DNA of 24,999 bases from Longimicrobiales bacterium (GCA_033722595.1 JAWVYT010000001.1:1-24999), one strand, 5' to 3'; numbered from the stretch's first letter, positions 3,125-20,063 are shown. Program-made: numbers and translations. Notes: generated by a model not told the origin, from the letters alone.

Positions 3125-3790
3125 CTACGCGCCGGCGTGCGTCTTGTCCCACGCCTCCTGGAAGATCCGTTCTCCCATCGTGGAGTACGGGCTCCTGAAG
3201 CTGTCCTGGTAGACGGCGAAGCCGGCGGTGACGCAATCGGCGCCCGCCCGGGCGGCCTCCCCGATCTGCCATCCGTTCCGGATCGCCGACGCGATGATCT
3301 CGGCGTCGTAGCCGCCGGCGTCGAGCATCTCCCGGACGCCCCGAATCAGCGAGATGCCGGGGTCGCCGTGGGCCTCTCGCCAGCCCAGGAAGGGGCTGAC
3401 GTAGGCGGCGCCCGCCCGAGCAGCGTGCCACGCCTGGGCCACCGAGAAGATGAGCGTGGCGTTGACCCGGATGCCGTCGCCGCTCAGCGTCCGGATGGCC
3501 GCGCACCCGGGCTCGCTCATCCCGATCTTGATAACGAACTGCGGGGAGATGGCCGCCAGCTCCCGGGCCTGCTCCACGATCTGGTCGTGGTCGGTCAGGT
3601 GGGGATTCACCTCCACGCTGATCGGCTTGTCCGTATCCGACAGGATGTCGGCGATCTCACGGATCACCCCCTTGAAACTCTTGCCCGAAGTGAAGACGTG
3701 CTTGGGGTTCGTCGTGATCCCGTTGAGGTCCCACACCTTCAGGGCGTGCCGGATCTCTTCCGTGTTCGCGCTGTCCAGAAACAGTTTCAT
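3125..3790 (-). CDS. sqvA: Small transaldolase (TalC/FSA family), closest in motif pattern to 6-deoxy-6-sulfofructose transaldolase
   Basis: Start ATG 3790 (MKLFLDSA), 221 aa. Catalytic D6, E60 and Schiff-base K88. TTNPKH, ISVEVNPHL, SPFLGW, IRNGWQI and GFAVYQDSF match the SqvA/SftT pattern as recalled, not ordinary TalC (TTNPSL, SPFVGR). Symbol assigned by similarity only. Confidence 0.8.
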   Translation of the reverse strand: MKLFLDSANTEEIRHALKVWDLNGITTNPKHVFTSGKSFKGVIREIADILSDTDKPISVEVNPHLTDHDQIVEQARELAAISPQFVIKIGMSEPGCAAIRTLSGDGIRVNATLIFSVAQAWHAARAGAAYVSPFLGWREAHGDPGISLIRGVREMLDAGGYDAEIIASAIRNGWQIGEAARAGADCVTAGFAVYQDSFRSPYSTMGERIFQEAWDKTHAGA

Positions 3791-3803
3791 TCGTGATTCC
3801 TTG

Positions 3804-5255
3804 CTAGTCGATTCCGCCGAAGGACAGGTGCTTGGTCTCCAGGAAGGCGTCCAGCCCCTCGGCTCCCAGCTCCCGACCCATTCCACTCTGCTTCATCCCG
3901 CCGAACGGGCTCTGGCTCGTCGACGGGACCGCGTCGTTGATCCCCACGGTCCCCGCCTCGAGCGCCTCCCCGACCCGCCATGCCCGGGCCAGGTCCGTGG
4001 TGAAGACGTACGCGGCCAGGCCATACTCCGTGGCGTTGGCCCGCGCCACTACCTCGTCTTCGTCGTCGAAGACCAGGAGGGGCGCGATGGGGGCGAACGT
4101 CTCTTCCACCGTGCACGCATGATCATCGGCCACGCCCTCGAGGACGGTCGGCTCCAGGAAGTAGCCGTCCAGCTCGGCCCGCCCGCCACCGGTGAGGACC
4201 GTGGCGCCCGCAGACACGGCGGCCTCGATGCTGGCCTCAGCGGCCTCCAACGCCCTCTCGTCCACCATGGGTCCGATATCGACCCCCTCGGTGAGCCCGT
4301 TCCCGACCTCGAGGTCCCGGACGCCGGCAACGAAGGCCTCCCGGAACGCGTCGTAGATGCCGCGCTGCACATAGATCCGGTTCGCGGCGATGCACGACTG
4401 ACCCGTGTTCCGGAACTTCGTGATCAGCGTTCCCTCGACGGCCATCTCGAGATCCGCGTCATCGAACACCACGACGGGGGCGTTGCCGCCCAGCTCGAGG
4501 GACAGCTTTGTGATGTCGTCCGCGGCCAGTCGCATGAGCTGGCGACCCACGGATGTGGAGCCCGTGAAGCTCACCTTGCGGCACTCCCGGTGCCCGAACA
4601 TGGCCTCGGCCACCGCCCGTGCGTTCCCCAGGACCAGCTGGAAGACGCCGCGCGGCAGCCCGGCCTCGTGGATGGCTTCGGCCAGGAGTACGGACGACAG
4701 AGGCGTCGCGCTGGCCGGCTTCAGCACCACCGGACACCCGGCGGCCAGGGCGGGGGCCACCTTCCGGACGGCGAGCACCAGCGGGAAGTTCCAAGGCGCG
4801 ATCGCGCCCACCACGCCGACCGGCTGACGGATGATCACGTGCCGCTTCCCGTCGACCTGGTGGGGGATGACCCGGCCGTAGCCCCGTCGGGCCTCCTCGG
4901 CGAACCACTCCAGGTGATCCACCGTCATGCCCACCTCGCCCCGGCTCTGCGCCAGCGGCTTGCCGTTCTCCCGCGTCAGCGTTCGGGCGATCTCGTCGGT
5001 ACGGTCCTCGATCCCCCGGGCGATCCGCCGGAGGTAGCCGCCCCTCTCCTTGCCCGTGAGGCGCCGCCAGCCGGGCCACGCGGCCGCCGCATCATCCAGG
5101 GCGGCGCGCACGCCGCCGGCGTCCACGGTCGCCACCCGACCGATGGTCTCGCCGGTGGCCGGGTCCTGGACGGCCAGGGGGTCGCCGCCCCGGTACCACT
5201 CGCCGTTCAGGTACAGGGGACGGACGCTCTGCGTGGGTGCTGATGTAGCTGACAT
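3804..5255 (-). CDS. NAD-dependent aldehyde dehydrogenase, GabD/succinate-semialdehyde dehydrogenase-like; candidate sulfolactaldehyde dehydrogenase
   Basis: IAPWNFP, VVLKPAS, SFTGSTSVG, LELGGNAP (catalytic Glu), RNTGQSCIA (catalytic Cys), EETFAP, PFGGMKQSG. Family is certain; substrate is inferred from context. Confidence 0.9.
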   Translation of the reverse strand: MSATSAPTQSVRPLYLNGEWYRGGDPLAVQDPATGETIGRVATVDAGGVRAALDDAAAAWPGWRRLTGKERGGYLRRIARGIEDRTDEIARTLTRENGKPLAQSRGEVGMTVDHLEWFAEEARRGYGRVIPHQVDGKRHVIIRQPVGVVGAIAPWNFPLVLAVRKVAPALAAGCPVVLKPASATPLSSVLLAEAIHEAGLPRGVFQLVLGNARAVAEAMFGHRECRKVSFTGSTSVGRQLMRLAADDITKLSLELGGNAPVVVFDDADLEMAVEGTLITKFRNTGQSCIAANRIYVQRGIYDAFREAFVAGVRDLEVGNGLTEGVDIGPMVDERALEAAEASIEAAVSAGATVLTGGGRAELDGYFLEPTVLEGVADDHACTVEETFAPIAPLLVFDDEDEVVARANATEYGLAAYVFTTDLARAWRVGEALEAGTVGINDAVPSTSQSPFGGMKQSGMGRELGAEGLDAFLETKHLSFGGID

Positions 5256-5306: not shown

Positions 5307-6575
5307 TCAGGGGGCCCGGGCCGGGACGTCCAGGTCCTCGGCATGGGTGCCCGCCGAGCCGGAGCGGACCTGCGCCAGGATCGTCTCCTCGTCCTCCGGG
5401 AAGCTCCACGAGAACCCCATCCAGGCTGCCCCGAGCGCGCCCGCGATGCCGCCCAAGCGCCCGTCCTCGAGGTAGGTGGTCTTCAGGATCTGGGGCAGCA
5501 CGTGCTCCCGGAACGTCTCCTCCAGCGCCTGCCGGACCGTGGAGCAGCAGTTCGGGACCTCGCCGGATAGCACGATCTTCTCCGGGGCGAAGAGGTTGGC
5601 GAGGTTCGCCAGGATGGTGCCCAGACGCTCACCCAGCTCCTCGAGGCAGGCATCCAGAAGGTCGTCACCGGCCTGGGCCTCCTCCACCAGGTCGGAGAGC
5701 CGCAGATCTTCACCCTTGTCCAGCAGCCGCTGTCGACTGTCCGTCTTCTGCCACGAACGCAACATGGCCCGGGTCGACTCCACGAACCCCGTCGCCGATA
5801 CCAGGTCGGTGACCAGCTTGGGCCCCCCATCGGTCGGCAGCACCGTGTAGCCCACCTCGCCCGCCAGCGCGTTCGCGCCCCGGTAGACCCTGCCATCGAT
5901 GACGATCCCGAGACCCACGCCCGACCGGACCGCCAGACACAGGAAGTCGCTGTTGCCACGCCCCGCGCCCCGCAGCAGCTCCGCGTAGGCCACCGCACGG
6001 ATGTTGTCCTCCACGAAGACGGGGACGTCCGGACCGAGGGCGGCCTCCATACGCTCCCGGACCGGGACCTGGTCGAAGTCCGGCAGGAGCCGGTAGTGGA
6101 GGATGCGGCCGGAACGCACGTCCACCTGGCCCGGCGCCGCGACACCCACGGCAAAGACTGGCCCATCCGCTTGTTCGACCATTCTCCGGGCCAGCTCCGT
6201 TATCGTCTCGAGCGCTTCCTCCCGGGAAGGGGAGGCCGGCAGCGAGACCTCCTCCTCCTTCAACACACCCCCGCCGAAATCACACAGCACCGCACGGGCC
6301 CGGAGCGCCTCGAAGTCGAGACCCACGAACGTGCCGTAGTCCGGGTTGAGTTGCAGCGGCACCGGCGCACGACCGGGGCGCGACTGCACCGGCTCGCCCT
6401 CCAACAGTATCCCGACGTCGAGGAACTCGTTGACGTATCGGCCGACCATCGTCGCGTTGATGTTCAGGCGCTGCGCAAGCTCGAAGCGGGAGCAGCGCTC
6501 ACTCCTGAACACCTGGTTCAGGATGCCGCGCTTCTTGGCCACCAGCTTCGTTTCTCGAGGTCGAGGATACGCCAT
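5307..6575 (-). CDS. ROK family transcriptional regulator
   Basis: N-terminal HTH (SRFELAQRLNINATMVGRYVNEF), then ROK segments VGLDF, VGVAAPGQVD, GVGLGIVIDGRVYRG and AGEVG. Confidence 0.9.
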   Translation of the reverse strand: MAYPRPRETKLVAKKRGILNQVFRSERCSRFELAQRLNINATMVGRYVNEFLDVGILLEGEPVQSRPGRAPVPLQLNPDYGTFVGLDFEALRARAVLCDFGGGVLKEEEVSLPASPSREEALETITELARRMVEQADGPVFAVGVAAPGQVDVRSGRILHYRLLPDFDQVPVRERMEAALGPDVPVFVEDNIRAVAYAELLRGAGRGNSDFLCLAVRSGVGLGIVIDGRVYRGANALAGEVGYTVLPTDGGPKLVTDLVSATGFVESTRAMLRSWQKTDSRQRLLDKGEDLRLSDLVEEAQAGDDLLDACLEELGERLGTILANLANLFAPEKIVLSGEVPNCCSTVRQALEETFREHVLPQILKTTYLEDGRLGGIAGALGAAWMGFSWSFPEDEETILAQVRSGSAGTHAEDLDVPARAP

Positions 6576-6702: not shown

Positions 6703-7326
6703 TCACTGCCCCCGGTTCCGCCATTCGACCTGGAGCTGTTTCACCTCGGCGACGCCGGGCAGCTCGTGCTTCATCGGAGCCCGGACGTGCTCCACGACCT
6801 CTGCGCCGGGGCGGAGGGTGGCCGGGGCGGGCTGGACGTGGCTGGCGATGCTGGCGGCCTCGACCGTGCCCGGGTCGTTCTCGATAAGGCGGTTGATGCG
6901 GTCGAGGTGCCGGTCGATGCCGGGCACGTGGGGCACCGCGTAGATGGCTGCGATGCGTGCGCCGTCGGCGTTCTCCGAGGTCGCGATCTTGAGGTCGAGG
7001 TACATCTCCCGGAAGTCCTGGCCGAAATAGCGATGGGCGCTGAGGTTGGCCACCACGGCGGTGCCCCAGCCGGTGCCGTGGGTGCTGATGGAGCCGAGTG
7101 ACTCCCATTCGCCGCCGAAATCGAGGTTGGTCCGGAGGAAGACCTCGTGCTCGCCGGCGTCGAGATCGGCTCCATAAATGAAGAGGTCGAATCTGAGGTC
7201 CTCGGGCGCGAAGGTCGGTTCGGGACGGGTGTCCTGGGCGGTGCCCGGGGTCCCGCAGCCGAGGGCCGTTGCGGTGACCAGCAGGAGCGTTGCGAACGTC
7301 CGTGCGAGAGGTTCCGGCGGATGCAT
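6703..7326 (-). CDS. Hypothetical lipoprotein; stand-alone copy of the C-terminal domain of the 10929-12581 protein
   Basis: ATG 7326 preceded by GAGGAAATC; hydrophobic stretch plus lipobox ALGC; 207 aa; visible similarity to the neighbouring protein (RFDLFIYG vs RFDLWIYG). Confidence 0.75.
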   Translation of the reverse strand: MHPPEPLARTFATLLLVTATALGCGTPGTAQDTRPEPTFAPEDLRFDLFIYGADLDAGEHEVFLRTNLDFGGEWESLGSISTHGTGWGTAVVANLSAHRYFGQDFREMYLDLKIATSENADGARIAAIYAVPHVPGIDRHLDRINRLIENDPGTVEAASIASHVQPAPATLRPGAEVVEHVRAPMKHELPGVAEVKQLQVEWRNRGQ

Positions 7327-7366: not shown

Positions 7367-8890
7367 TCACGAGGCTTCCAGCACGACGGTGACGGTGGCG
7401 ACGGCCACGTCGGCGGGCAGAGTGATGGAGCCCTCCTCGGGGTCGTAATCGGACCACGGGCGTCCGTCGATCTCCACCGCCGTGATCCGGATCTCCGGGT
7501 CCTCCAGCAGGGAGGGGTGGAGCGTCGCTCCATTCGGCTCCACGATGCGGTAGTGGAGCGTCGCGGGCTCCTCCTCGACCCAGAGAGTGAGGTAGAGATA
7601 GTTGAGGAGCGCGTACTCCATGGAGTGATACGACGTCTTCGTGCGGACGGCTTTATCACCCCTGTGGAGGGACCCATCGAGGTATACGCTGAGATACACG
7701 GCGCCGTGCTCGGGGTCCATGAAGGCCCGGTTCCAGAACTCTGCGCCCGAGCGGAACACCTCGAGGTGCCGACGGTCCCCGGTCAGCCGATACTGGTACA
7801 GCTGCACCATGTTCCCGTACGCCTGGACCCACCAGGGCGTGGTGTTCCTGTGCACCTCGCCGGTAGCCAGCCGCAGCTGATGGGCCCACGCGCCGGTCTC
7901 CGGCTGGTACGCGTGCTCCAGCATGGAGGTCGCGAGCCGAAGGCCCTGGTCGCGGTAGGCGTCGTCACCGGTGAGGAGGTGGAGCCGCATGAGCAGCCAC
8001 CCGGTCTCCAGGTCGTGGCCGACGTTCGTCCGACGATCCTCGGGGCCATCGTACCGCCAGCTCCGATCGAACCGGCCCAGGACCCAGCCGGTCTCCGGGT
8101 CCCGTGTGCGCTCCATCACCACGCCCAGGATCCGCTCCATCCGCTGGAGGAGCACGGGGTCCCGCAGGGCGGGGTAGAGGTACGCCAGGTAGCCGGAGAC
8201 GTGGGCGATCTGGGGAGAGAAGTCCTTTCGCCATTCCCGGACCGACAGGTCCCGGTTCAGGCTGCGCACGTAGCCGCCGAGCTCCTCGTCCCAGGCGTGC
8301 CGCTCGAGGATCTCCATGGACCGATCGAGGTACCGGCGCACCACCGGATCCCGCGTCACGACCCAGTACATGGCCAGTCCGGTCACGGCGTACGCCTGGT
8401 TGAACAGGTCCTTGGTGTCGGCGACGATGCTCCCGTCCCGGTCCAGTTCGTCGTACCAGCCCCCGTACGCCTCGTCCCACCCGTGGTCCACCAGGAAGCC
8501 GAAGACGTCACCGGCGACATCCAGATGAGCGGCATCGCCGGTCAGGAGGTAGGCCGCGGAATAGCTGAAGAGGTGACGGGCCACCATGCCGGGGTACTTG
8601 TGGAGGTCGCGACTCGGCCGCCACTCCCGGTCCATCTCGGCGAAGAACGCGCCCGCCTCGGTGTCCTGGCCGTTGCGGGTCCAGGCGGGGAGCACGTCCT
8701 CGAGCCCCTGTGCCCGCCAGTAGTCGCCGTCCAGGAGGGCATCGGCCGTGACACCCGCGGTCGGCTCGTCGGTCACGGACTCGGCCGACGCCGAAGCGCC
8801 TGCGCCGGTCGGGCCACAGGCCGCGCAGGAGAATGCGAGGGCGGGGAGCAGCAGCCGGGCCCCCGATCGGACCGTGTTCGGGGCCCTCAT
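7367..8890 (-). CDS. AGE-family (N-acylglucosamine/cellobiose 2-epimerase, YihS-like fold) epimerase/isomerase with probable lipoprotein signal
   Basis: ARHLFSYS, GWDEAYGGWY, KDLFNQAY, VGHDLETGWLL, WWVQA, SYH. ATG 8890 overlaps the upstream stop (ATGA). Signal LLLPALAFSCAAC; 507 aa. Confidence 0.85.
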   Translation of the reverse strand: MRAPNTVRSGARLLLPALAFSCAACGPTGAGASASAESVTDEPTAGVTADALLDGDYWRAQGLEDVLPAWTRNGQDTEAGAFFAEMDREWRPSRDLHKYPGMVARHLFSYSAAYLLTGDAAHLDVAGDVFGFLVDHGWDEAYGGWYDELDRDGSIVADTKDLFNQAYAVTGLAMYWVVTRDPVVRRYLDRSMEILERHAWDEELGGYVRSLNRDLSVREWRKDFSPQIAHVSGYLAYLYPALRDPVLLQRMERILGVVMERTRDPETGWVLGRFDRSWRYDGPEDRRTNVGHDLETGWLLMRLHLLTGDDAYRDQGLRLATSMLEHAYQPETGAWAHQLRLATGEVHRNTTPWWVQAYGNMVQLYQYRLTGDRRHLEVFRSGAEFWNRAFMDPEHGAVYLSVYLDGSLHRGDKAVRTKTSYHSMEYALLNYLYLTLWVEEEPATLHYRIVEPNGATLHPSLLEDPEIRITAVEIDGRPWSDYDPEEGSITLPADVAVATVTVVLEAS

Positions 8891-10932
8891 GGCCGCCTCG
8901 GCGGTGGCAGCACGCCGGGGACGGCGATGATCGGGCTGTCGGCCAGTCGGGACATGACATCGATCCGGCGCTCCACGAGGCCGTTCCGGTTCACGTCCAG
9001 GACCGCCGCGATCCGGTAGCGTCCCGGCGGGATGCTCTCGAAGCGGAAGGCGCCGTCGGGTCCCGCGGCGGTCTCGAGCACGGGCTGCGCCAGGTACGGC
9101 TCGATCTTCCGATACGGCAGGTCGGCCATGTAGAGGCCGACCCGGATCGTGGCGTCGCCGGGCTCGCCCTCGATGTCCAGCGCTCCCCGGAGCGTGCGAC
9201 CCTCGAGGACCAGGCTGGCGGCGCGCAGGTCCACGGCGGTCACGTCGGTGTCCAGGAGGTCCGGCGGAAGATCGAAATGAATGGCCGCGGTCTCCTCGCG
9301 GGCCCGAACCGTCACCGGGTGGCCGTAGATCAGGGTCCGGAGGTCCTCGTAAGCGCTTTTGTCGCTCGTCGGGCCGGGGTTCCGAGGGTCGGCCTCCGCC
9401 ACGTAGATGTAGAACGTGCCCGGCGCCAGCCGGTCGATCCTCCAGCGGCCGTCCTCGTCGGCTACCGTCCGCTGTCCCCAGAATCCGCCGGTGTAGTTGG
9501 GCCACGCCGGGATGCGCCGCACACCCACGGCGACGACGTTCTCGCCGTGGTAGTCCACGGTGCCCGCGATGCTGCCGAGGAGGGTGTCGGGGTCGAGGGG
9601 TGGGGTGGCCGGGTGATCGGGGTCCACCAGCCGTAGCGCCTCATCGATGATCCGGACGCCGTAATGGGGCTGGAACCGGACGCCCTTGGCCTGGTAGGTG
9701 ACGGCCTCGAGGGCCAGGTGCTCGGGCACGATGTAGCCGATGTAGTCATCGGCGTTCGTGATGAGCATGTTCTTCTCGAGGGGCGAGCCGGCCTCGTAGC
9801 GGTACCCCAGGTCCACGCCCAGCTCGCCGGGGATGGTGGCGAGGACCGCGTCGTTCAGGACCAGGGCCTGGAGGAGGGTCTCGTGGCTGTCCCCGTCCCG
9901 GCGCGGGATCTCCGCCGTGGTGGAGCGGAACGCGAGGTCGACCTGCCGTCGTGTCTCCGTCCGGTCGAGGAGGGCCACGACCTCTTCGCCCAGCTTCTCC
10001 ATGAAGACGAGCTTCGGCGGGGCCTCCTCACCCCGGATCCGGGTGTCGGCTCGCCGGGGCTGCTGGTCACCCGCCGCGCCGCCCGAAAACATGATGAACG
10101 GGTCGGTGGCGATGTCGTTCTTCCGCTGGTAGCGCTCGTACAGCAGGTCCAGCCGCTTCCTGGCCTCCACGTACTCCCGGACGAACCCGGGCCAGTCCGG
10201 CCCCGTCTGCCCGACATCGCTCCACTCGGTGAAGATGGTGGGATGGGACCCGTAGTTGAACATGGCGCCACGGAAGTTGCCGTCGGCGTCGTCGACGCGC
10301 AGTACGTAGAGGAGCGGGTTGGCCAGGCCCGACAGCTCGGCTCGGTTCAGGTTCAGATCCTCCTGCGCCCGGGTCTTCCCGACACCGATCCGGGCGTCGA
10401 ACCGGGTCGCCATGGCCTCCTCGGCGGCCCGGGTCGCCCGGTCCGCCAGGAAGCTCCGGACCTCCTGGCCGTGCGTCCGGGGGTACGAGTGGTTGTGGGT
10501 TGCTGCCACGATCATGTGACGGACGTCGAGCCCCGTGGCTTCGGCTACCCGGCGCTTGATCCACTCCCCGTCGCCCCGACGGATCCCGATGACGTCGAAC
10601 TCCAGGAGCAGGGTTTCGACACCGTCGACCTCGATGAGGAGAGCATGGACCAGCGCACTGTCGTAGTACCCCGTCGTCGGCTCCGGACGCCCGTACGAGA
10701 GGCGGACCGGGAACTCCGGCGTGATATCCGCCTCGCCGAACCCCACGCGGACGGCGCCCGACGCCCGGACCTCGTACACGGGCGCGGCGGTCCGGGCGTC
10801 CCGGCCAAGCGGAGGGATTCCGGGACCCGGCTCCGCCCCGGAGGCTCCCGGCAGCGCCAGGAACGCGGTCAGGCACACCACGACGGACGACCGGCACTCC
10901 CCGGCGCCGGCGAGCCCTCGCCTCCGGGTCAC
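8887..10932 (-). CDS. Exported neutral/alkaline ceramidase-like amidase domain plus C-terminal beta-sandwich (carboxypeptidase-regulatory-like) domains
   Basis: GFGEADITP, AATHNHSYP, NYGSHPT, GAAGDQQP, NADDYIGYIVP; C-terminal WRIDRLAPGTFYIYV and FRFESIPPGRYRIAAVLDVNRNG. GTG 10932 overlaps the upstream TGA; signal peptide-like N-terminus; 681 aa. Confidence 0.78.
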   Translation of the reverse strand: MTRRRGLAGAGECRSSVVVCLTAFLALPGASGAEPGPGIPPLGRDARTAAPVYEVRASGAVRVGFGEADITPEFPVRLSYGRPEPTTGYYDSALVHALLIEVDGVETLLLEFDVIGIRRGDGEWIKRRVAEATGLDVRHMIVAATHNHSYPRTHGQEVRSFLADRATRAAEEAMATRFDARIGVGKTRAQEDLNLNRAELSGLANPLLYVLRVDDADGNFRGAMFNYGSHPTIFTEWSDVGQTGPDWPGFVREYVEARKRLDLLYERYQRKNDIATDPFIMFSGGAAGDQQPRRADTRIRGEEAPPKLVFMEKLGEEVVALLDRTETRRQVDLAFRSTTAEIPRRDGDSHETLLQALVLNDAVLATIPGELGVDLGYRYEAGSPLEKNMLITNADDYIGYIVPEHLALEAVTYQAKGVRFQPHYGVRIIDEALRLVDPDHPATPPLDPDTLLGSIAGTVDYHGENVVAVGVRRIPAWPNYTGGFWGQRTVADEDGRWRIDRLAPGTFYIYVAEADPRNPGPTSDKSAYEDLRTLIYGHPVTVRAREETAAIHFDLPPDLLDTDVTAVDLRAASLVLEGRTLRGALDIEGEPGDATIRVGLYMADLPYRKIEPYLAQPVLETAAGPDGAFRFESIPPGRYRIAAVLDVNRNGLVERRIDVMSRLADSPIIAVPGVLPPPRRP

Positions 10933-12581
10933 CGGTCCGGGCCTCCCGTGAGTCCCAGCGCCTCGCGCCAGGCCGCCCGGGCCGCGTCGGGGCCCACCGG
11001 GCGCCGGGCCTGGACCGTGATCGTGACCGGTGCCGCGGCGTCGATGGCGAGGGGGCGGGGCCGGACCCAGGCGGCGAGGCTGTTGATGTCGGCCCATCGG
11101 GGGTGAACCTCGATGAACCGGGTGACCTCCGCCTCGGTCAGGAAGTTCCGGGTCTCCCGATACGGCATCGCGTAGACGGCCGAGACGGTGGAGCCGTCCC
11201 TGCCGTTCGGCGTCTCGAATCGGACCTGGAGCCGGCCGTCCACCAGGAATCGGTCCCGCTCCAGGGCGTGGAAGAGGACAGCGTGCGACCGGTCGGCGTA
11301 CGAGTACATGTGCGCCGTGTCCGCGTCCTCGACGTAACCCTCCCGGTCCTGCTGCGGGTTGATGGAGCCCAGGAACTCCCAATCCCCGTCCGCCGTTCGG
11401 AGGGAGACCCGGTGCTCCGAGTGATCGAAGTCGTGGCCGTAGATCCAGAGGTCGAACCGCTCTCGCGGCTCGATCGCGCCGCCGGCCTCGAGGAGTCGGA
11501 GGTAGCCGTACGTGAAACGGTCCCGGGAGGTCCCGATGACGGAGCCCGCGGGACCGATGGCGCCCTGGCTGTTGGGGACGAACGGGTCGAACGAGACGTC
11601 GTAGAGCCGGTCCTCGGAGACACCGGGGTCCCGGGAGATCAGCATGTGATTGGTGGCCGAGTAGTTCGGCCAGTACCAGCCGAGGCCGTCGGGCTCGCCG
11701 GCCATCATGGCGTCGACGTTGGTGTCGATCTCCCACCGGCTCGGCGTGTGGCCCAGCCGGATCGTGTGGATCTGCCCCAGCTGATAGGCGCCGACGCCGT
11801 AACGGTCCGCCACGGTCCGGATGTTCCGGACCACGTCGGTTATGTAGTCGTTTATCCCCTCGATCCCGAAGCCCCGGGCGAGCCAGCCTCGGTAGATGTC
11901 GGAGTAGATGAAGTCCGGCGTGGCCCCGTGCTCCGTCGCCCGGCGCATGAACTCGTCGATCAGCGAGTATTCACCGGCCATCGCCTCCGACGCGTTGTGC
12001 GGGTGGTGGAGGAAGACCCCGACCTCCACGGTGGGCATCTCCTCCTTTAGGGCCCGGGACATCATGGCGAATGCCTCCGGGGCGTGACGCCGGAACTGGT
12101 CGAAGTCGAGGAAGTAGTCCCGGTGTCCGTCCACGAGATCCCGGCCGAACCCGCCGAGGGGCGCCTCATCGAACAGGCTGATCCGCCCGCCGTCCGGGTA
12201 GTACTCGTTGAAGATCCGGGCGATGGCGCGGAACCGGGCCAGTGCGGGGGCCCGCTTCTCCGGATCCTCGACGAACTCGCGGGCTGTTGCCTCCCGGCCC
12301 GGTCCGATCTCCAGCCACACCTCCTCGATGCCCAGCTCGGTGGTCCATTCGAAGAAGTTGCGGAGCCCTAACGTGTCCCGGTTGCCGGACTGATAGGGAA
12401 CGATGTCGTGCCGCTTCGCGAAGGTGAGCATGGTCCGGAAGAGCTCCGGGTCACCCTCCATGAGGTTCTGCCCGCCGGTCCACATGTGAACCTCCAGCTC
12501 CTGCCCGTCGGCCAAGGACGCGCCGAGACCCGCGAAGGAAAGGAGGAGCAGGGCTTCCACGCACCGTCGTCTGAATGCCAT
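10929..12581 (-). CDS. Exported hypothetical protein (~550 aa); possible TIM-barrel glycoside-hydrolase-like domain plus C-terminal domain
   Basis: Signal peptide MAFRRRCVEALLLLSFAGLGASLA; protein-like composition; in line with the operon. Start 12581 (alternative 12611). No family recognised with confidence. Confidence 0.75.
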   Translation of the reverse strand: MAFRRRCVEALLLLSFAGLGASLADGQELEVHMWTGGQNLMEGDPELFRTMLTFAKRHDIVPYQSGNRDTLGLRNFFEWTTELGIEEVWLEIGPGREATAREFVEDPEKRAPALARFRAIARIFNEYYPDGGRISLFDEAPLGGFGRDLVDGHRDYFLDFDQFRRHAPEAFAMMSRALKEEMPTVEVGVFLHHPHNASEAMAGEYSLIDEFMRRATEHGATPDFIYSDIYRGWLARGFGIEGINDYITDVVRNIRTVADRYGVGAYQLGQIHTIRLGHTPSRWEIDTNVDAMMAGEPDGLGWYWPNYSATNHMLISRDPGVSEDRLYDVSFDPFVPNSQGAIGPAGSVIGTSRDRFTYGYLRLLEAGGAIEPRERFDLWIYGHDFDHSEHRVSLRTADGDWEFLGSINPQQDREGYVEDADTAHMYSYADRSHAVLFHALERDRFLVDGRLQVRFETPNGRDGSTVSAVYAMPYRETRNFLTEAEVTRFIEVHPRWADINSLAAWVRPRPLAIDAAAPVTITVQARRPVGPDAARAAWREALGLTGGPDR

Positions 12582-12739: not shown

Positions 12740-14320
12740 CTACTGCACGCTGATGTCTGAGTCCGCGCTGTACTCGCCGCCCCCGCCAAAGCTGTACACC
12801 TGGAGCCCGAAGGACTCCAGCTCCTCGGCCGGGATCGGCAGCTGCTCGAACGTACCGGGCTGGAGCGTGCCGAAGCCCCGCCGGTCGAACCACGTGAGCC
12901 ATACGTCCAGGCCCATCCCCTCGATGAGCCGCTCGTGGTGGAGCGCGTCCATGAGAGTGCCACACGCGGTGCCATCCTGCGTCCTCGGGATGCACGACGA
13001 CAGGCCGCCAGGGACGCCCGCAGCCGTGACGGGCGGGAGCTGCCCGTTGGCTTCCCGGGTGATATTGATGAGGGTGGCAGCGCCGTCAGGGTCGCTGGTC
13101 CGGAGCAGGGCCTCGGCCTTCAGCAGGTTCATCTCGTCCACCGTGATGACCGGGTTCAGCGCCTCCGCCCAGGGAAACGTGGTCCCGGCGAACCGCTCCC
13201 ACTTGTACCGGCCGTGGAGGTACTCATCCGTGGAGCCCACGTTGATGGCCTCGTCGGTCCACCGGAAATAGAGCCCCGGCGTCTGGGGCCCGCCGGCCCC
13301 GGCGATGCGTCGGTCCGCCGTCTGGACGTCGAACGGCGCCATCTGGTCCTGACTGGCCGCCACCCAAGCGGCGAAGACACCGGTCGTATCCGCCGGCCCC
13401 AGGAGCCGGAAGTCGGCGCTCCAGCGCTGGGCCAGGATCTGCATCAGGTACTGGAAGTACGCCGAGTTGAGCCCGCCCGTGGTCATCTGGACCATGAAAT
13501 CGCTCTGGATCCCGGCGTCCACGTGCTGGATCACCTGGGTCCAGTCCACGGCCTGCCGCTCCGTCGGGTTCCGGGGTGTGTACACCAGGAGGCGGGCCAT
13601 GTAGCTGTGAGCCAGCTCCACCAGCTCGGCGTTGGTCAGAGGGTTGCCGCCGGCCCAGGAGGCCGGGGTTTCGAACGCCGGTGCCGCCGTGGCGATGTCG
13701 ATGGCGTTCTGGAGCGAGGTCATGGCGAACGCCTGGACCTCCGGGTACGGCCGGTAGGCCAGCTCGGCCTCGTTCTGGAAATCGGTGTCCACGTCGGCCA
13801 GCGTGGCCTGATCGAAGATCATGGCCAGGTACCCGTAGAGGATCCCGTGGTTGAGCCACGCGAAAGCCTCGGCCCGGGCGTTCGCGGCCGCTTCGGTGGC
13901 GGCGCCGGCATCCGGTGGGAACGAGATGTCGTTGTCGTAGAAGGCCCGCAGCCCGTCCATGGCGTTGGCCGCGCCGGCGTACGCCTCGTACCAGGGCGCC
14001 TCGACCAGCGGGCCCGTGTTGCCCACCTGGGAATTGGGGAAGAGCCCACGGGGCTCCGTGGCGAAGTCGATGAGGTTCCGGTGGTTGGCCGTCCCCTCGT
14101 CGGAGTAGCCGGGGATCCGGGCGGCCGAGCCCACCTGGTCCTGACCCACGGCCCACACCGAGTTCCAGGACGCCGCGATGAGGTTCTGCACCGCCACGGC
14201 ATCGGACAGCGCGGCCGTGCGGTCCGGGTCCGTGATGTTCTCGACTGCAAGGTCCTCGCACCCCGCGGTCAACCCGAGGAGCACGAACGCACTGAATAGA
14301 AGTGTCTTGTTCATTGGCAT
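12740..14320 (-). CDS. susD: SusD/RagB-like outer-membrane nutrient-binding lipoprotein
   Basis: Lipobox LTAGC; C-terminal EMNLLKAEALLR, LINITR, LHHERLIE, FDRRG, QLPIPAEE; directly downstream of the SusC-like gene. Start 14320 or 14314. Confidence 0.85.
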   Translation of the reverse strand: MPMNKTLLFSAFVLLGLTAGCEDLAVENITDPDRTAALSDAVAVQNLIAASWNSVWAVGQDQVGSAARIPGYSDEGTANHRNLIDFATEPRGLFPNSQVGNTGPLVEAPWYEAYAGAANAMDGLRAFYDNDISFPPDAGAATEAAANARAEAFAWLNHGILYGYLAMIFDQATLADVDTDFQNEAELAYRPYPEVQAFAMTSLQNAIDIATAAPAFETPASWAGGNPLTNAELVELAHSYMARLLVYTPRNPTERQAVDWTQVIQHVDAGIQSDFMVQMTTGGLNSAYFQYLMQILAQRWSADFRLLGPADTTGVFAAWVAASQDQMAPFDVQTADRRIAGAGGPQTPGLYFRWTDEAINVGSTDEYLHGRYKWERFAGTTFPWAEALNPVITVDEMNLLKAEALLRTSDPDGAATLINITREANGQLPPVTAAGVPGGLSSCIPRTQDGTACGTLMDALHHERLIEGMGLDVWLTWFDRRGFGTLQPGTFEQLPIPAEELESFGLQVYSFGGGGEYSADSDISVQ

Positions 14321-14339
14321 ACCGTGTGTTCTCGGGTAG

Positions 14340-17300
14340 TTAGAAGGTGATCTCGACCGTGGCCGTGAGCTGACGGAGGTTCGGGTAGCCAAAGGCGTCG
14401 TACCGGTTCAGCACCGTGCCCACGTCCGGGTCGTATCCGCTGTAGCCCGTGAGGGTGAACAGGTTCCGGCCCGTGATCCCCAACGTCAGGTTCTGTGGCG
14501 CCATGGAGCCCGGGAGCCACCCCAGCTGGCCCCGGTTGAACGTGTAGGCCAGCTGGATCGCCTGGAGCTTGAGGAACGTCGCGTCCTCGACAAACGGGTC
14601 GGTGAAGATGTTGTTGTTATAGAGCCCGCGCTGGTAGTAGCGGCGGCTCTTCTTCGTTTCCTCCGACTTGCCCCGCTGGTCCAGGTCGCCGTGCTGGCTG
14701 AGACGGTACATGCGCTGCCGCGTGTAGTTGTACACATCTCCACCGATCTGGCCGCGCAAGTGGGCGTGTACGGACAGCCCCTTCCACGTGACGTTCGAGA
14801 GGAAGCCGTAGCTGAAATCGGGCTTCATGCTCCCGATCTTGAACGTCAGCTGCTCCCCCGTCGCCGGGTCGAACATGGCCACCGGCCAGCCCCAGTCGTA
14901 GCGGACGCCGTCGATCGTGGTCCGCGTCTCCCAGTTCACCCTGCCGGTCCCGGAATCCTCGAGCCCGTCCCGCCACGTGTTCCCGGCTCCGACCCAGACG
15001 ACGTAGCCCTCGTCGTTCACGTCGAACTCATCCTCGAAGCCGGCCAGCCCGATATCGGCCAGCTGGTCGAGGCTCGTCAGGAACTGGCTCCCGTAGATGT
15101 CGTAGAGAGAGTTGCCCTCGTCGTAGATGCGGAGGCCGTCGCGGAGCGGCGCGATGGGCCATTCCGTGATCGTGCTGGTGGTTTGGTCCCCCACGAACGT
15201 CGCCGTCCACCGCAGGTTGTCGCTCTGGATCAGCGACGCCTCGAGGCTCATCTCGAGGGCCGTCCCCTCGATGGTCCCGATGTTGTCCCACTGGTACTGG
15301 TAGCCCGTCACCGCACGCTGCGGACGACGGAGGATCATGTCTTCGGTCCGCTGCGTCGCGTACGTCAGCTGCAGCAGGTAGCGATCGTACAGCGCCACGT
15401 CGAGCCCGACCTCCTGCTCCCGGGCGAACTCGGGCTTGAGCGCCCGGTTGCCCAGGGTCCCGCGGGTGAACGTCACCGTCTGCCCGTCGGCCGAGACATC
15501 CACGTCCCAGGTCTCGTACTGGAAGGCGAAGTCCGGGCGGTTCCCGGCCGTGCCCAGCGAGTACCGGGGCTTGAACTCCGTGATCACGTCGGCGAACGGC
15601 CACCAGGGCTCCTCGCTTACCCGGTACGCTAGCGCGGTCCGGAAGTACGTGTGCCACCGCTCTTCGGGACCGAACAGCGAGCTGCCGTCCTGTCGCACGA
15701 GGAAGCTGCCGATGTACTTGTCCGAATAGTCCAGTGCCAGGTCCGCGAAGTACCCGTTCGCACGGATCGTCTCGTTCGTCGAGCGGATCGTGCGGTCCCG
15801 GGCCAGGTTTACGTCGCTCGTGCCCAGCACGGCGAAGTCCTCACCCCGCGTCTGGACGTCCACCAGGTCCCGGCTCTCGAAGCTCCCCGCGAACGTGAGT
15901 CGCGAGTTCAGCAGTCCGAAGTTCTCCGTGAGGGTGGCCCTCAGGCTCCCGTTCTGCGTGTCCATCGTCCGCTCCCGCAGGTCCAGGAGGCCGGGCGACG
16001 GGAACGTCTCCGGGTTGCCCGAGAAGGGGTTGATCGGCGTGCCCGCCGGCAGGTGCCACTGGTTGTTCCGGTCGAGCCGGTCGTACGAGAACTGACCGCT
16101 GATCCGCAGCCACTGAGCGGGTGAGTAGTTCAGCGCGATGTTGCCCAGCGTCCGCGAGCGCTTCTCCCAGTTGTCCCGGGTCTGGGCGAGGAAGAGAGGG
16201 TTCTCCTGCCAGTACGACGAGTCGGGGAACTGGACATAGAGCCCCGTTTCGGGATCGATCTTCCCGATGTCGAACTCGTTCCGGTACCGCATGAGCTGGA
16301 AGAACGCTCCCTGTCCGGTGGCCCCGGACTCACCCTCGTCGATGGTCTCCCGGAACGACCGGTTGTGGTACCCGCTGAACGACAGCGAGAGGTTGTCCAT
16401 GATCCGGTGATCCAGGTTGAAGCGGAAGTTGTAGCGCTCGAAACCCTCGTGCCCCGGGATGGAGCCGGCCTCGTCGTAGAGGTTGAACGACGTCAGGAAG
16501 TTCGTCTTCTCCGAGTTCCGGCTCACGCCAAACGACTGCATGAGGAACCGGCCTGGCTTGTAGAACGTCCCGATGTGGTCGTAGAGCGGGTCGATATAGC
16601 TCTGGTCCGCGATCTGTCCCGGGTTGTTGGCGAAGCCCTCGCAGTTCGGATAGAAGCGCCGGCACCCAAGGTCGCCGTCCCGGTCGAGCATGTCGCCGGT
16701 ACGGACCAGGCGCCCGTGAGAATCCGTGTAGGGCTCGCCCTCGTTCACGACCCGCCAGTGCGCCTCCAAGGACGGGATCCGGCGCGGCAGGGCGCTCGCG
16801 CCCGCCTCCGAGCGGTACGTGAACCGTGTCTGGTCCAGGGCCACGCCCGAGCCCCGAGCCGTCCGGATCTGGATCACGCCCGCCGCCGCCCGGGACCCGT
16901 AGAGCGACGCCGCGGCCGCTCCCTTGATCACCTCGATGGACTCGATGTCCAGAGCCTCGAGATCGATGGTCCCGGCGCCCAGGATCACGCCGTCTACCAC
17001 GTACAGCGGCTCGTTCCCCGTGAAGACCGTGGTCGGGGTCCGGAGCTGAATGCTGACCTCCTCACCGGGCTGCCCGCTGGGTCGCGTGATGTTCACACCG
17101 GCGACCTTCCCCTGCAGCGACTGCAGCGCCGCCCCGGTGGCCGGAACCGTCGCAACGTTCTCGGCGCTGACACGCCCCACCGTGAAGGGGAGCTTCTTCC
17201 CCTGGACGGGATCCACCACGCCGGTCACGACGATCTCGTCGAGGGACAGCGCCGTCTGCCGGAGCACGAAGTCCACCACGTGCGTGCCCGACTCCAGCGT

Positions 17301-17582
17301 GACGTCCTCCTCTACCGTGGAATACCCGATGGACTGGGCCACCAGCGTTACGGTCTGGTCCCGAACCAGAGAAGCCGGAACCGCAATGCGGTACCGGCCC
17401 TGTTGATTCGTGAAGGTCCCGAGCCCCTGGTCCGCCAGCCCGTCGACGTAGACCTGTACGCCCGGCATCGGGTCCCCGGCCTCGTTGGCCACCGTGCCCA
17501 GGAGCGTCGCTTCCTGCGCCAGCGCCGGGCCGGATCCCAGGAGAAGGAGTGCGAAGATGAGTCCAATTGGCCTGGTCTTCAT
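14340..17582 (-). CDS. susC: SusC/RagA-like TonB-dependent transporter
   Basis: Signal peptide, N-terminal beta-sandwich, DEIVVTG TonB box, PLYVVDGV and IEVIKGAAAASLYGSRAAAGVIQIRT plug motifs, terminal Phe (VEITF). ATG 17582 with AGAGG RBS; 1080 aa. Confidence 0.93.
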   Translation of the reverse strand: MKTRPIGLIFALLLLGSGPALAQEATLLGTVANEAGDPMPGVQVYVDGLADQGLGTFTNQQGRYRIAVPASLVRDQTVTLVAQSIGYSTVEEDVTLESGTHVVDFVLRQTALSLDEIVVTGVVDPVQGKKLPFTVGRVSAENVATVPATGAALQSLQGKVAGVNITRPSGQPGEEVSIQLRTPTTVFTGNEPLYVVDGVILGAGTIDLEALDIESIEVIKGAAAASLYGSRAAAGVIQIRTARGSGVALDQTRFTYRSEAGASALPRRIPSLEAHWRVVNEGEPYTDSHGRLVRTGDMLDRDGDLGCRRFYPNCEGFANNPGQIADQSYIDPLYDHIGTFYKPGRFLMQSFGVSRNSEKTNFLTSFNLYDEAGSIPGHEGFERYNFRFNLDHRIMDNLSLSFSGYHNRSFRETIDEGESGATGQGAFFQLMRYRNEFDIGKIDPETGLYVQFPDSSYWQENPLFLAQTRDNWEKRSRTLGNIALNYSPAQWLRISGQFSYDRLDRNNQWHLPAGTPINPFSGNPETFPSPGLLDLRERTMDTQNGSLRATLTENFGLLNSRLTFAGSFESRDLVDVQTRGEDFAVLGTSDVNLARDRTIRSTNETIRANGYFADLALDYSDKYIGSFLVRQDGSSLFGPEERWHTYFRTALAYRVSEEPWWPFADVITEFKPRYSLGTAGNRPDFAFQYETWDVDVSADGQTVTFTRGTLGNRALKPEFAREQEVGLDVALYDRYLLQLTYATQRTEDMILRRPQRAVTGYQYQWDNIGTIEGTALEMSLEASLIQSDNLRWTATFVGDQTTSTITEWPIAPLRDGLRIYDEGNSLYDIYGSQFLTSLDQLADIGLAGFEDEFDVNDEGYVVWVGAGNTWRDGLEDSGTGRVNWETRTTIDGVRYDWGWPVAMFDPATGEQLTFKIGSMKPDFSYGFLSNVTWKGLSVHAHLRGQIGGDVYNYTRQRMYRLSQHGDLDQRGKSEETKKSRRYYQRGLYNNNIFTDPFVEDATFLKLQAIQLAYTFNRGQLGWLPGSMAPQNLTLGITGRNLFTLTGYSGYDPDVGTVLNRYDAFGYPNLRQLTATVEITF

Positions 17583-17803
17583 GCTACCTCTTGGATTGGG
17601 TTTGACGTGAGTCGGGCCCGTCCACTGCCAAGATGCGGGCCGAATCCGGGGTTCTGTGCTGCCCTGCGGCCCTCGCCGCCCGGCGGGACACCGGGCAGCA
17701 ATCGGCATGGATCGCGCGGCCTCTGTAGGCCTGTAGGATTCGCTGCCAATGGAACGATTCAGGGGTCGGGCCGGAGCCGTTGGGGTCGGGTTCGTTGGAC
17801 GGC

Positions 17804-17987: not shown

Positions 17988-19463
17988 TCAGGAGTCGGGG
18001 GTGCCCGTGTACGCGGGATTCGGCTCCGGCATCTGGGCGTCGATCTCGGTGAGCCAGCGGGTGAGGCGTGCCTGGAGGTCGTCGCGGAGCTCCGGGCGGG
18101 CGGCGCTCAGGTCACGGGACTCGGTGGGATCCTGGCGCAGGTCGTAGAGCTCGGTCCGGTCCTCGTGGTACCATCGGATGAGCTTGTGGTCGCCGAAGCG
18201 AATGGCGCTCGAAGGTCGGTGCCCGGAGCCGTGGTAGTGGGGGTAGTGCCAGTAGAGGGCGTCCCGCGAGAGCGCTCCGTCGCCGGTGAGGAGCGGGAGG
18301 AGGCTCAGGCCGTCATCCAGGGTGTCGCCGGGCTCGAGGCCGGCGATCTCCAGCAGGGTGGGGAAGAGGTCGTTGGTGATCACGGGCTCATCGATGACGG
18401 ACCCCGGGCCCACCACGCCGGGCCAGCGAACCATCATCGGTCCGCGGATCCCGCCCTCGTACAGCCACCCCTTGCCGGCGCGGAGCGGCAGGTTGGAGGT
18501 GGGCGGCTCGATGGGCCAGTCGCGCTCGAGGACGGCCAGTCCGCCGTTGTCGGACAGGAAGACCACCGCGGTGCGCCCCGCCAGATCGTTCTCATCGAGG
18601 CTGCGCAGAACCCGGCCCACGGCCGCGTCCAGGGTCTCGACCATGGCCGCGTACACGGGGTCGCTCTGGACCCTCCGGTGGACGTGGGGACCTTCCGGCC
18701 CGAAGACATCGAGGGTATCGAGCCCCATGCGCTCCGCTTTCTCCCGGTACGCGGCCACGAGCGCAGGTTTGCCTTCCAGCGGCGTGTGCGGTGCGTAGAA
18801 CGACAGGAAGAGGAAGAACGGGCGGTCCCGGTGCTCGCGTATGAAGGCGGCGGCTTCCTCACCCAGGCGATCGGTGAGGTTCTCGCCCTCGGCCCCCGTG
18901 GCGGTCAGCTGCGGCAGGTCGCGGCCATTGCCCACGTACGGCCAGAAGTAGGTCGGGGGCGAGCCGTAGTCGTTGGCCCCGATCACCCGATCGAACCCCT
19001 GGTCCGACGGCCGATGACCCTCCCGACCCAGGTGCCACTTGCCGATGTGCGCGGTGGCGTATCCGGCATCGCCGAGCGCCTCGGCCAGCGTGAGCTCGTC
19101 CAGGGGGAGCGCCGCGTGGTCCCGCACCTGGAGCAGACGCTGGTGCGAGGCGTCGCCCTGACCCGGGAGCCAGTCCGTGATCCGGAGCCGGGCGGGGTAG
19201 TGGCTCGTGAGGATGCTCGCCCGTGAAGGAGAGCAGACCGACCCGGCCGTGTACGCATGCGTGAACCGGGCGCCCGACGTCGCCAGGCGATCCAGGCTCG
19301 GCGTCTCGTGGAACCCGCTGCCGTAGACGCCGAGATCCGCCCAGCCTAGGTCGTCGGCCACGATGACCACCACGTTCGGCGGCGGGACCGGCGTCGGGTC
19401 GCCGCAGCCGAAGACCATGAAGAGAACGACGGGCAATGGGATGCGTCGGGACCAGGTGAGCAT
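17988..19463 (-). CDS. Cys-type formylglycine-dependent sulfatase (S1 family), probable lipoprotein
   Basis: PNVVVIVADDLG, CSPSRASILT (CxPxR), HIGKWHLG, FLSDNGG, KGWLYEGGIR, ELYDLRQDPTE; lipobox VFGC; ATG 19463; 491 aa. Confidence 0.93.
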   Translation of the reverse strand: MLTWSRRIPLPVVLFMVFGCGDPTPVPPPNVVVIVADDLGWADLGVYGSGFHETPSLDRLATSGARFTHAYTAGSVCSPSRASILTSHYPARLRITDWLPGQGDASHQRLLQVRDHAALPLDELTLAEALGDAGYATAHIGKWHLGREGHRPSDQGFDRVIGANDYGSPPTYFWPYVGNGRDLPQLTATGAEGENLTDRLGEEAAAFIREHRDRPFFLFLSFYAPHTPLEGKPALVAAYREKAERMGLDTLDVFGPEGPHVHRRVQSDPVYAAMVETLDAAVGRVLRSLDENDLAGRTAVVFLSDNGGLAVLERDWPIEPPTSNLPLRAGKGWLYEGGIRGPMMVRWPGVVGPGSVIDEPVITNDLFPTLLEIAGLEPGDTLDDGLSLLPLLTGDGALSRDALYWHYPHYHGSGHRPSSAIRFGDHKLIRWYHEDRTELYDLRQDPTESRDLSAARPELRDDLQARLTRWLTEIDAQMPEPNPAYTGTPDS

Positions 19464-19530
19464 GGGATCGCTGTGGCAGGTTCGTGGAGCCCCGTCCCCG
19501 GCGAAAGCCGGCGTCGCGGCCGTTGACCCC

Positions 19531-19559
19531 AGGGTAGAGGTCCGGGAGGGCCCCGTCAA
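19531..19559 (-). promoter_or_regulatory. Candidate sigma70 promoter for the sulfatase
   Basis: Minus strand TTGACG (19559-19554), 17 nt, TACCCT (19536-19531; TAnnnT). Confidence 0.5.
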
Positions 19560-19569
19560 ATCGGAGGGT

Positions 19570-19666
19570 TGTTCCGGAAACAGATTATCAGTAGGCCGGC
19601 CTTCTGCCCACCCGCCCCGGGCGCGACGGCGGGCGAACTTGACCCATTGATATTACGATAGCAGAA
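19570..19666. promoter_or_regulatory. Pair of candidate ROK operators (sites 4 and 5) in the divergent promoter region
   Basis: TGTTCCGGAAACAGAT (19570-19585) and TATTACGATAGCAGAA (19651-19666), 81 bp apart. Confidence 0.6.
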
Positions 19667-20047: not shown

Positions 20048-20063
20048 GAAGGGCGAACCAGAT

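Follow-up and report, generated by a model that had tools for sequence, protein, structure and literature searches.

A neutral-ceramidase-fold protein encoded among glycan-uptake and sulfonate-type catabolic genes in a Longimicrobiales bacterium

Why is an exported protein with the fold of a neutral ceramidase encoded between two carbohydrate-type enzymes, in a locus that also carries sulfonate-type catabolic genes? The question is raised by a stretch of 24,999 nucleotides from Longimicrobiales bacterium (GCA_033722595.1, JAWVYT010000001.1:1-24999), referred to here as the window, and by one gene in it, referred to as the target gene. The original prediction had proposed that the product of this gene removes the N-acyl group from a sulfo-amino sugar or a sulfonolipid. 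The best explanation of our results is that the target belongs to a small three-domain branch of the neutral-ceramidase (PF04734) superfamily and is a Sec-exported, zinc-dependent amidohydrolase. We propose, with a probability of about 0.5, that it is a zinc amidase that works in the periplasm on a sulfated or sulfonated glycan, at a residue that is N-acylated or linked to an amino acid. The gene and the parts of its product are as follows.

8887..10932, minus strand: target gene, coding for an exported three-domain protein of 681 aa; GTG start, TGA stop, stop-free translation
10834..10932, minus strand: signal peptide, residues ~1-33, with an RRR n-region, a hydrophobic core and PGASGA; Sec type, without a canonical lipobox
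9598..10785, minus strand: catalytic domain with the neutral-ceramidase fold, residues ~50-445 (H146, H148, N196, R197, H230, D289, E370, Y400, Y413)
9268..9582, minus strand: first C-terminal beta-sandwich, residues ~451-555, fn3_3/transthyretin-like, all-beta by DSSP; sub-threshold PF14686 and PF17210
8911..9255, minus strand: second C-terminal beta-sandwich, residues ~560-674, CarboxypepD_reg-like; PF13620 at E 6.5e-7, below the curated cut-off

The target gene is not a chance open reading frame (ORF), because homologues with 45-71% identity over >90% of its length occur in several phyla. A 949-aa reading of the same frame was rejected as an artefact of the 69% G+C content; it extends through the coding region of the upstream gene, g09. 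The start codon of the target gene (GTG, 10932-10930) overlaps the stop codon of g09 (TGA, 10931-10929) in a GTGA, and its own stop codon (TGA, 8889-8887) overlaps the start codon of the downstream AGE-family gene (ATG, 8890-8888) in an ATGA. These overlaps bear out the translational coupling that had been claimed on both sides. The four motifs named in the original prediction were also all located in the translation (THNHS at 145-149, HPT at 230-232, GAAGD at 285-289 and DYIGY at 396-400), and the key residues of each are invariant in an alignment of 25 members of the target family. Leaders similar to the predicted Sec-type export signal were present in 25 of 25 aligned members and in 4 further homologues that were read. 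The predicted site of action is the periplasm.

The fold was assessed on an AF2 model of the target with a mean predicted local distance difference test score (pLDDT) of 80.5, in which residues 1-49 have a pLDDT <50. Foldseek returned the neutral ceramidases of P. aeruginosa (PaCD; 2zws, 2zxc) and human (4wgk) as top matches (E ~1e-23, best 3e-23), and the matches that followed were ~16 orders of magnitude weaker. Alignment of residues 58-441 with 2zws in VIA-align gave a Z score of 30.6 and a root mean square deviation of 3.2 A over 358 residues. The claimed neutral-ceramidase fold was thereby confirmed for the model, with an intact metal/catalytic site. The catalytic domain had no sequence match in Pfam, NCBIfam or the PDB, permissive E-values and the family profile included, and PF04734 was not matched by the target protein even at E up to 1. 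Since direct sequence matches are absent, the label "ceramidase-type" rests on the fold, the conserved residues and a profile link to PF04734 proteins. This link has several parts. One family member (P0017) has a precomputed PF04734 match, and PF04734 proteins match the target at E 1e-7. The profile of the target family retrieves 8132 representatives at E <= 0.001, mostly of ~430 aa; all 10 of the multidomain representatives scanned carry PF04734 above the cut-off. In the ESM Atlas, the clusters nearest to the target are 55-97% PF04734. A PF04734 search of the window's own genome gave no match and is uninformative, since control genomes were likewise silent.

In an alignment of the target family with the 430-aa PF04734 proteins, residues H146, H148, N196, R197, H230, E370, Y400 and Y413 are invariant. 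Through the intermediate P0037, residues H146, H148, R197, H230 and E370 align with human H194, H196, R257, H303 and E540, of which we take H194, H303 and E540 to be zinc ligands. Judging from the motif, the invariance in the superfamily and the expected spacing, Y400 and Y413 would be equivalent to human Y579 and Y591. In human neutral ceramidase, His196, Arg257, Tyr579 and Tyr591 are critical for hydrolysis, and Ser354 stabilises Arg257 (PMC6952831). If the target follows the chemistry of neutral ceramidase, H146, H230, E370 and Y400 would hold the zinc ion, and H148, R197 and Y413 would assist a metal-activated water.

The two extra beta-sandwich domains of the original prediction are present at residues ~451-555 and ~560-674. 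The first gave a Z score of 10.7 to domain II of the rhamnogalacturonan lyase 1nkg, and the second gave Z scores of 7-9 to FN3/Ig-like domains. PF17048, the Ig-like C-terminal domain of ceramidases, was not matched in the target, and the structural alignments with ceramidases end at residue ~441. The resemblance of the sandwiches to polysaccharide-lyase and CarboxypepD_reg domains was counted as glycan context. Both domains may bind carbohydrate or partner proteins.

With such a fold, the target could be a true lipid N-deacylase (a ceramidase, a glycosphingolipid deacylase or a lipid A amidase) that frees the fatty acid of an amide-linked glycolipid, the sugar head then being processed by g09 and the AGE-family protein. 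The combination of a sulfatase, a TIM-barrel glycosidase and a ceramidase parallels the lysosomal breakdown of sulfatide, and in other branches of the superfamily the domain is fused to SCP2. Ceramide hydrolysis is moreover the sole characterised activity of the fold (PMC6952831). We nevertheless regard this function as unlikely. In the structural alignments ~130 residues of PaCD (358 of 487 aligned) and ~165 of the human enzyme (351 of 517 aligned) have no counterpart in the target, and a helical insert of ~60 residues that is found in the 430-aa homologues is absent, leaving a compact catalytic domain. The family-specific invariant residues near the site (Q290, R293, Q414, K416, N205 and N226) are mostly polar or basic, and SusC/SusD systems, with which the family is associated as described below, typically import glycans. 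Other branches of the superfamily are fused not only to SCP2 but to a class-III aminotransferase, an Ntn-type acylase domain, an S9 peptidase, DUF4861 or xylose-isomerase-like barrels. This diversity fits a generic amine-releasing amidase scaffold, and ceramide specificity should therefore not be transferred to the branch of the target.

The company that the target family keeps in other genomes was then used as a guide to the substrate. The family comprises 35 clusters at 90% identity, with members 45-71% identical to the target, and ~15 full-length clusters at 50% identity. Its carriers are Balneolaceae, Salinivenus, Prolixibacteraceae, Sphingobacteriales, Latescibacterota and Bathyarchaeota-type metagenome-assembled genomes (MAGs). 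All family records with a taxon name are MAGs, and no named carrier in culture was found. Among 400 other genomes from the phylum of the window, none had a target homologue at E <= 1e-40. Neighbours were counted at the 12 family loci that have enough flanking sequence. An exported AGE-family gene adjoins the family gene in 9 of them; 7 have a g09-type or GHL10 barrel, 6 have SusC/SusD and 3 have SGSH_C-type sulfatases, with seven copies in L023. The g09-type gene directly adjoins the family gene in L020, L028 and L040. Conserved partners of this kind (AGE protein, glycoside hydrolase (GH)-like barrel, SusC/SusD and carbohydrate sulfatases) speak for a glycan as the substrate and against a sulfonolipid. 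The more distant Latescibacterota, archaeal and Salinivenus loci have heterogeneous sugar and ABC-transport neighbours.

Some of these loci deserve separate mention. In L023 (182-14730), a family member with 53% identity is surrounded by a tandem array of seven SGSH_C-type sulfatase genes, two of which carry type IX secretion tails; GH63-like and enolase-superfamily genes follow this cluster. In L021 (10001-13535) and L022 (2423-5957), the family gene is directly followed by a 437-aa, PF04734-positive ceramidase-like gene and an SSF symporter gene, in a SusC/SusD locus with MORN, GHL10 and GATase1_like genes.

At one locus a glycosylasparaginase-family (Asparaginase_2) gene comes directly after the target homologue, accompanied by a pyridoxal 5'-phosphate-dependent enzyme, and peptidases lie near two copies of the family in Sphingobacteriales. 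These neighbours would suit a glycopeptide amidase that cleaves the amide link of a glycan to asparagine or to some other amino acid, in the manner of PNGase or glycosylasparaginase, or a uronic-acid amino-acid amide, in an envelope glycoprotein or heteropolysaccharide. A possible cargo for such an enzyme is documented: haloarchaeal S-layer N-glycans contain N-acetylglucosamine (GlcNAc) and methyl-sulfoquinovose, and that of Haloferax volcanii combines GlcNAc, an Asn amide and methyl-sulfoquinovose-hexose repeats (PMC8241124). N-glycans of this type are at most candidates for the cargo. The evidence from neighbours stems from single loci, the window has neither a peptidase nor a peptide transporter, and the chemistry is without precedent for the ceramidase fold, which makes a glycopeptide amidase quite unlikely. 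A salt-in halophile signature was also considered for the window and rejected; its proteins have a pI of ~5 and are only mildly acidic, which is not diagnostic.

A glycan-type substrate is in keeping with the operon of the window. On the minus strand, the order of transcription is sulfatase, SusC, SusD-position gene, g09, target, AGE-family gene and g06, followed by genes for a ROK regulator, an aldehyde dehydrogenase, a transaldolase and an SSF symporter. The genes of the uptake part that surround the target are as follows.

17988..19559, minus strand: sulfatase, formylglycine-type, S1_16-like (PF00884 and PF16347)
14340-17708, minus strand: SusC/RagA-type TonB-dependent transporter (TIGR04056, 483.1 bits against a cut-off of 368.25)
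~12740-14392, minus strand: SusD-position gene, directly after susC (sub-threshold PF07980, E 0.088; 72% identical to an ORF at the contig end of L040)
10929..12581, minus strand: g09, exported 550-aa (beta/alpha)8-barrel glycosidase-like protein with a C-terminal beta domain (no Pfam family; model pLDDT 85.9)
7367..8890, minus strand: AGE-family (alpha/alpha)6 protein of 507 aa with a lipoprotein-type leader and a C-terminal extension of ~80 aa (PF07221, E 2e-30)
6703..7326, minus strand: g06, small exported protein related to the C-terminal domain of g09

The model of g09 found its best Foldseek matches among GH14, GH157, GH5, GH53, Cwp19 and PgaB-C (E ~1e-8). The nearest structures to the AGE-family protein are 8h1m/8h1k and cellobiose 2-epimerases (E ~1e-22), and the sulfoquinovose isomerase 7ag4 follows at only 3.5e-8; the protein thus resembles cellobiose/mannose 2-epimerases more than the sulfoquinovose isomerase YihS. 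Its leader is kept in homologues. In a search of the own genome, residues 374-525 of g09 matched positions 6778-7197, within g06, at E 5e-10, and g06 homologues come after the AGE gene in L037-L040. For the sulfatase, the nearest PDB entry is 9fo1, "k-carrageenan sulfatase S1_16" (E 4.5e-124), and chains named N-acetylgalactosamine (GalNAc)-6-sulfatase follow at E 4e-108. This closeness to S1_16 kappa-carrageenan and GalNAc-6-sulfatases points to sulfated galactose or GalNAc in the cargo alongside any sulfonate. Clear SusD genes are present at other loci of the target family. Elsewhere in the window genome (G000), a distant paralogue of g09 with 36% identity was found on contig C120 (5149-6498). 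Two ORFs of the window on the minus strand, 452-1300 and 19556-20470, are probably not genes but wrong-frame ORFs of high-GC DNA, with a pI of 11-12, almost no lysine and no family match.

The partners of the target also occur in its absence. A cassette of three genes, coding for g09, an exported AGE protein and a small exported protein of ~190 aa, was found in >90 clusters and is far commoner than the target. It is carried by Balneolaceae/Fodinibius, Salinibacter, Bacteroidales MAGs and Gemmatimonadota, with a distant copy in the haloarchaeon Halomarina. Often it lies amid housekeeping genes, as in the genome of a cultured Fodinibius, and its three genes all lack an annotation. The cassette was recorded in L038 (10001-13720) and L039 (10001-13536) as well as in the window (g09 at 10929-12581). 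In a genome of the same genus as the window (G167, contig C80), g09-, AGE- and g06-like domains make up one exported ORF of 1236 aa (L037, 9179-12889, minus strand). Low-complexity linkers join the domains, and a linker takes the place of the AGE signal peptide. That genome has no ceramidase-like gene and no SuyB-like gene, and its FSA is only 39% identical to that of the window. A Rosetta-stone fusion in a genome without a SuyB-like gene implies that the enzymes flanking the target act together, independently of the sulfonate pathway. Because the same-genus genome has the fused partners and no ceramidase-like gene, the target seems to be an accessory that a glycan-processing cassette may or may not have. 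An insertion of the target in place between g09 and the AGE gene is unproven; the fused copy in G167 is 53-54% identical and not a strict orthologue.

The locus continues beyond the cassette with genes of two further groups, a cytoplasmic arm on the same strand and a divergent arm.

5307-6575, minus strand: ROK regulator, cytoplasmic arm
3804-5255, minus strand: SSADH-like aldehyde dehydrogenase (SSADH score 550, equivalog cut-off 646)
3125-3886, minus strand: FSA/TalC-type transaldolase (FSA score 180, equivalog cut-off 246)
1290-3116, minus strand: SSF symporter, cytoplasmic arm
19730-20047 and 19992-21233, plus strand: split UxaA-type dehydratase with a SuyAB-like layout, divergent arm
21310-22923, plus strand: Ldh_2 protein, best NCBIfam match L-sulfolactate dehydrogenase (score 242, equivalog cut-off 500)
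22694-23884, plus strand: 2-hydroxyacid dehydrogenase, divergent arm
23806-24966, plus strand: YeiH-family exporter, divergent arm

Because all NCBIfam matches stay below the equivalog cut-offs, the functions of the sulfolactate-type arm are putative; "sulfonate locus" is nonetheless a reasonable description of the window as judged from its gene families. An operator-like 14-mer, TTNYGNNNNCAKAW, was located at 6636, 17841, 17922, 19572 and 19653, and also at 14746 inside susC. It occurs in three intergenic regions with promoter-like sites: in front of susC, in front of the ROK gene and between the divergent genes. At 6636, the 14-mer is perfectly palindromic and overlaps a promoter-like TTGACA-17-CATAAT. 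This arrangement suggests that the uptake operon and the sulfonate-type genes may form one regulon. The closest relative, L040, keeps the order SusD-g09-target-AGE-g06-ROK-ALDH-TAL with identities from 45% (g06) to 78%, and the orthologues of the cytoplasmic arm are 71-78% identical and in the same order. The cargo in the lineage of the window is probably a glycan with sulfate esters, a sulfoquinovose-type sulfonate or both, because the cassette is joined to an S1_16-type sulfatase and to putative sulfofructose-transaldolase/sulfolactate genes, apparently under one regulator.

The link between the family and sulfonates did not extend further. When all window proteins were compared by tblastn with 18 genome loci and further loci, sulfonate-arm genes were found only in L040. 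Neighbours of the transaldolase, SuyAB-like or sulfolactate-dehydrogenase-like type were absent from ~20 other family loci in six phyla. For the Latescibacterota, Bathyarchaeota and Salinivenus loci, with 42 neighbours, no transaldolase, SuyAB-type dehydratase, Ldh_2 or sulfatase was among the 25 of 58 Pfam families listed. An association of the family clade with sulfonate genes had been named beforehand as the observation on which the original prediction should be judged, and outside the lineage of the window and L040 it is absent at those ~20 loci. The claim of a ceramidase-fold enzyme in a sulfonate locus therefore holds for the window, where plausible sulfofructose-transaldolase/sulfolactate genes, an apparently shared operator motif and synteny with L040 support it, and fails as a property of the family.

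These results bear on three substrates that would tie the target directly to a sulfonate. The first is a 6-deoxy-6-sulfo amino sugar, N-acetyl-sulfoquinovosamine or its glycoside, which the target would de-N-acetylate; after uptake, the amine would be deaminated and the product isomerised to sulfofructose, the substrate of the transaldolase. Such a route would explain why the only AGE/YihS-type gene of the locus is exported and why an amidase lies in a sulfo-sugar locus, and the fusion of superfamily members to a class-III aminotransferase fits an amine-releasing chemistry. A literature search, however, found no paper that mentions sulfoquinovosamine, and no NagB-like gene was detected at the left end of the window by Pfam or PDB sequence search. 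The family is mostly found without sulfonate genes, and the target is periplasmic in this proposal, whereas its partner would be cytoplasmic. We consider the sulfo-amino sugar quite improbable.

A second substrate is sulfoquinovosyldiacylglycerol (SQDG), the main natural source of sulfoquinovose, from which the target, as an esterase/lipase instead of an amidase, would strip the ester-linked acyl chains so that g09 could release sulfoquinovose. Metal amidases often hydrolyse esters, and the window has neither a GH31-type sulfoquinovosidase nor a lipase; a GH31-family gene that could be a sulfoquinovosidase lies elsewhere in the window genome (G000), on the short contig C281 (87-998). This function is very unlikely, given that the family is not tied to sulfonate genes elsewhere, that the sulfatases often encoded nearby have nothing to act on in SQDG, and that the same-genus genome has the g09-AGE fusion with no SuyB-like gene and with a transaldolase of only 39% identity. 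The weakest reading, and one of the two originally predicted, is that a Bacteroidota-type sulfonolipid (N-acyl-capnine, sulfobacin) has its N-acyl chain cleaved off by the target so that the sulfonated head group feeds the sulfolactate arm: the ceramidase fold with its intact site, the sulfonate-type catabolic genes in the same locus and the occurrence of target relatives in Salinivenus and Balneolaceae, groups whose relatives make sulfonolipids, speak for it, but it is highly improbable because the locus and the family neighbourhoods hold no other gene for the handling of a lipid, the downstream arm of transaldolase and aldehyde dehydrogenase performs sugar chemistry and includes no enzyme that fits capnine breakdown, the family partners are of the glycan type, and sulfonate genes are lacking near the family outside the lineage of the window.

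We therefore return to the periplasmic amidase acting on a glycan. Several observations weigh against it. In L024 and L025, no glycan genes lie near the family member. The Ser of the ceramidase motif GDVSPN is Gln in the target (GDQQP, 288-292); GDQQP is also the family consensus, with G288, D289 and Q290 invariant. The SusD-position gene is below the Pfam threshold and had no PDB sequence match. For the 14-bp motif, 7 matches were counted against 0.18 expected, and this enrichment is circular, the pattern having been derived from the same sites. Literature searches returned nothing on the target family, of which no member has been characterised enzymatically. A lipid substrate, finally, keeps some of its probability, because the characterised enzymes of the fold are ceramidases and other branches carry the lipid-binding SCP2 domain.

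The target is encoded in the SusC-headed operon together with g09, the AGE-family protein and g06. According to the proposed mechanism, it would hydrolyse an amide bond, in the periplasm, on material imported by SusC. The likeliest bond would be the one by which an amino-sugar residue carries an N-acetyl group or another N-acyl group; an amide between glycan and amino acid is less likely. Cleavage of the amide could make the glycan accessible to the two partner enzymes, g09 and the AGE-family protein. A far-reaching version of this proposal, which we regard as improbable, is that the locus serves specifically for growth on envelope glycans that bear sulfoquinovose and sulfate, such as the GlcNAc and methyl-sulfoquinovose-hexose N-glycan of haloarchaeal S-layer glycoproteins. 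The target would then found a new family of carbohydrate-active amidases, comparable to a family of carbohydrate esterases, and its removal of an N-acyl group or its cleavage of the amide between glycan and amino acid would have to come before g09 and the AGE protein can release a sulfo-sugar for the transaldolase pathway.

To our knowledge, which includes the literature searches, no activity other than ceramide hydrolysis has been demonstrated for the neutral-ceramidase fold. These searches found nothing relevant on PF04734/ceramidase-like enzymes together with glycoside hydrolases and sulfatases, or on neutral ceramidase in polysaccharide utilisation. The target family and thousands of related prokaryotic proteins in glycan-uptake or sugar-processing contexts suggest that glycan breakdown includes a class of amide-cleaving steps that has gone unrecognised. 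If the proposal is true, complex sulfonated or sulfated glycans, beyond free sulfoquinovose or its glyceride, would enter the organosulfur cycle through a SusC-linked locus. The identity of the substrate would name the cargo of the locus, give functions to two unannotated partner families and could add a family of carbohydrate-active enzymes.

The locus was finally compared with known systems. Like the sulfo-TAL pathway with SuyAB, the window has an FSA/TalC-type transaldolase, an SSADH-like aldehyde dehydrogenase, a split UxaA-type lyase and an Ldh_2 protein. In contrast to that pathway, the sole AGE-family gene of the window codes for an exported protein that is closer to cellobiose/mannose 2-epimerases than to YihS, and we know of no amidase, SusC or sulfatase in the known sulfo-TAL pathway. 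With E. coli PgaB, a CE4 deacetylase joined to GH153, the locus shares the pairing of an exported amidase-type protein with a TIM-barrel glycosidase-like enzyme. This is an analogy only, since the CE4 fold is unrelated to the amidase fold of the target, and there is no evidence that poly-GlcNAc is the substrate here.

The closest structural likeness is to PaCD (2zws, 2zxc) and human ASAH2 (4wgk), with which the target shares export and the catalytic fold (Z ~30, 350-358 residues aligned), and its His-x-His, Arg, His and Glu positions align with those of the human enzyme. It differs from both in its low sequence identity (17-19%), in the lack of a PF04734 match and in its context, a SusC uptake operon with glycan enzymes instead of sphingolipid metabolism. 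Two transthyretin-like sandwiches replace the Ig-like domain of the ceramidase architecture (PF04734 plus PF17048). The single-domain PF04734 proteins of ~430 aa, annotated as "neutral/alkaline ceramidase N-terminal domain-containing", share the core fold and the catalytic residues with the target family and are retrieved by the family profile at E down to 1e-40. They are 22-28% identical, and the target family adds to them its own inserts (FTEW and a helix at 258-275) and the two C-terminal domains. Set beside these systems, the target joins a known fold and chemistry to a new architecture and context and probably to a new class of substrate.

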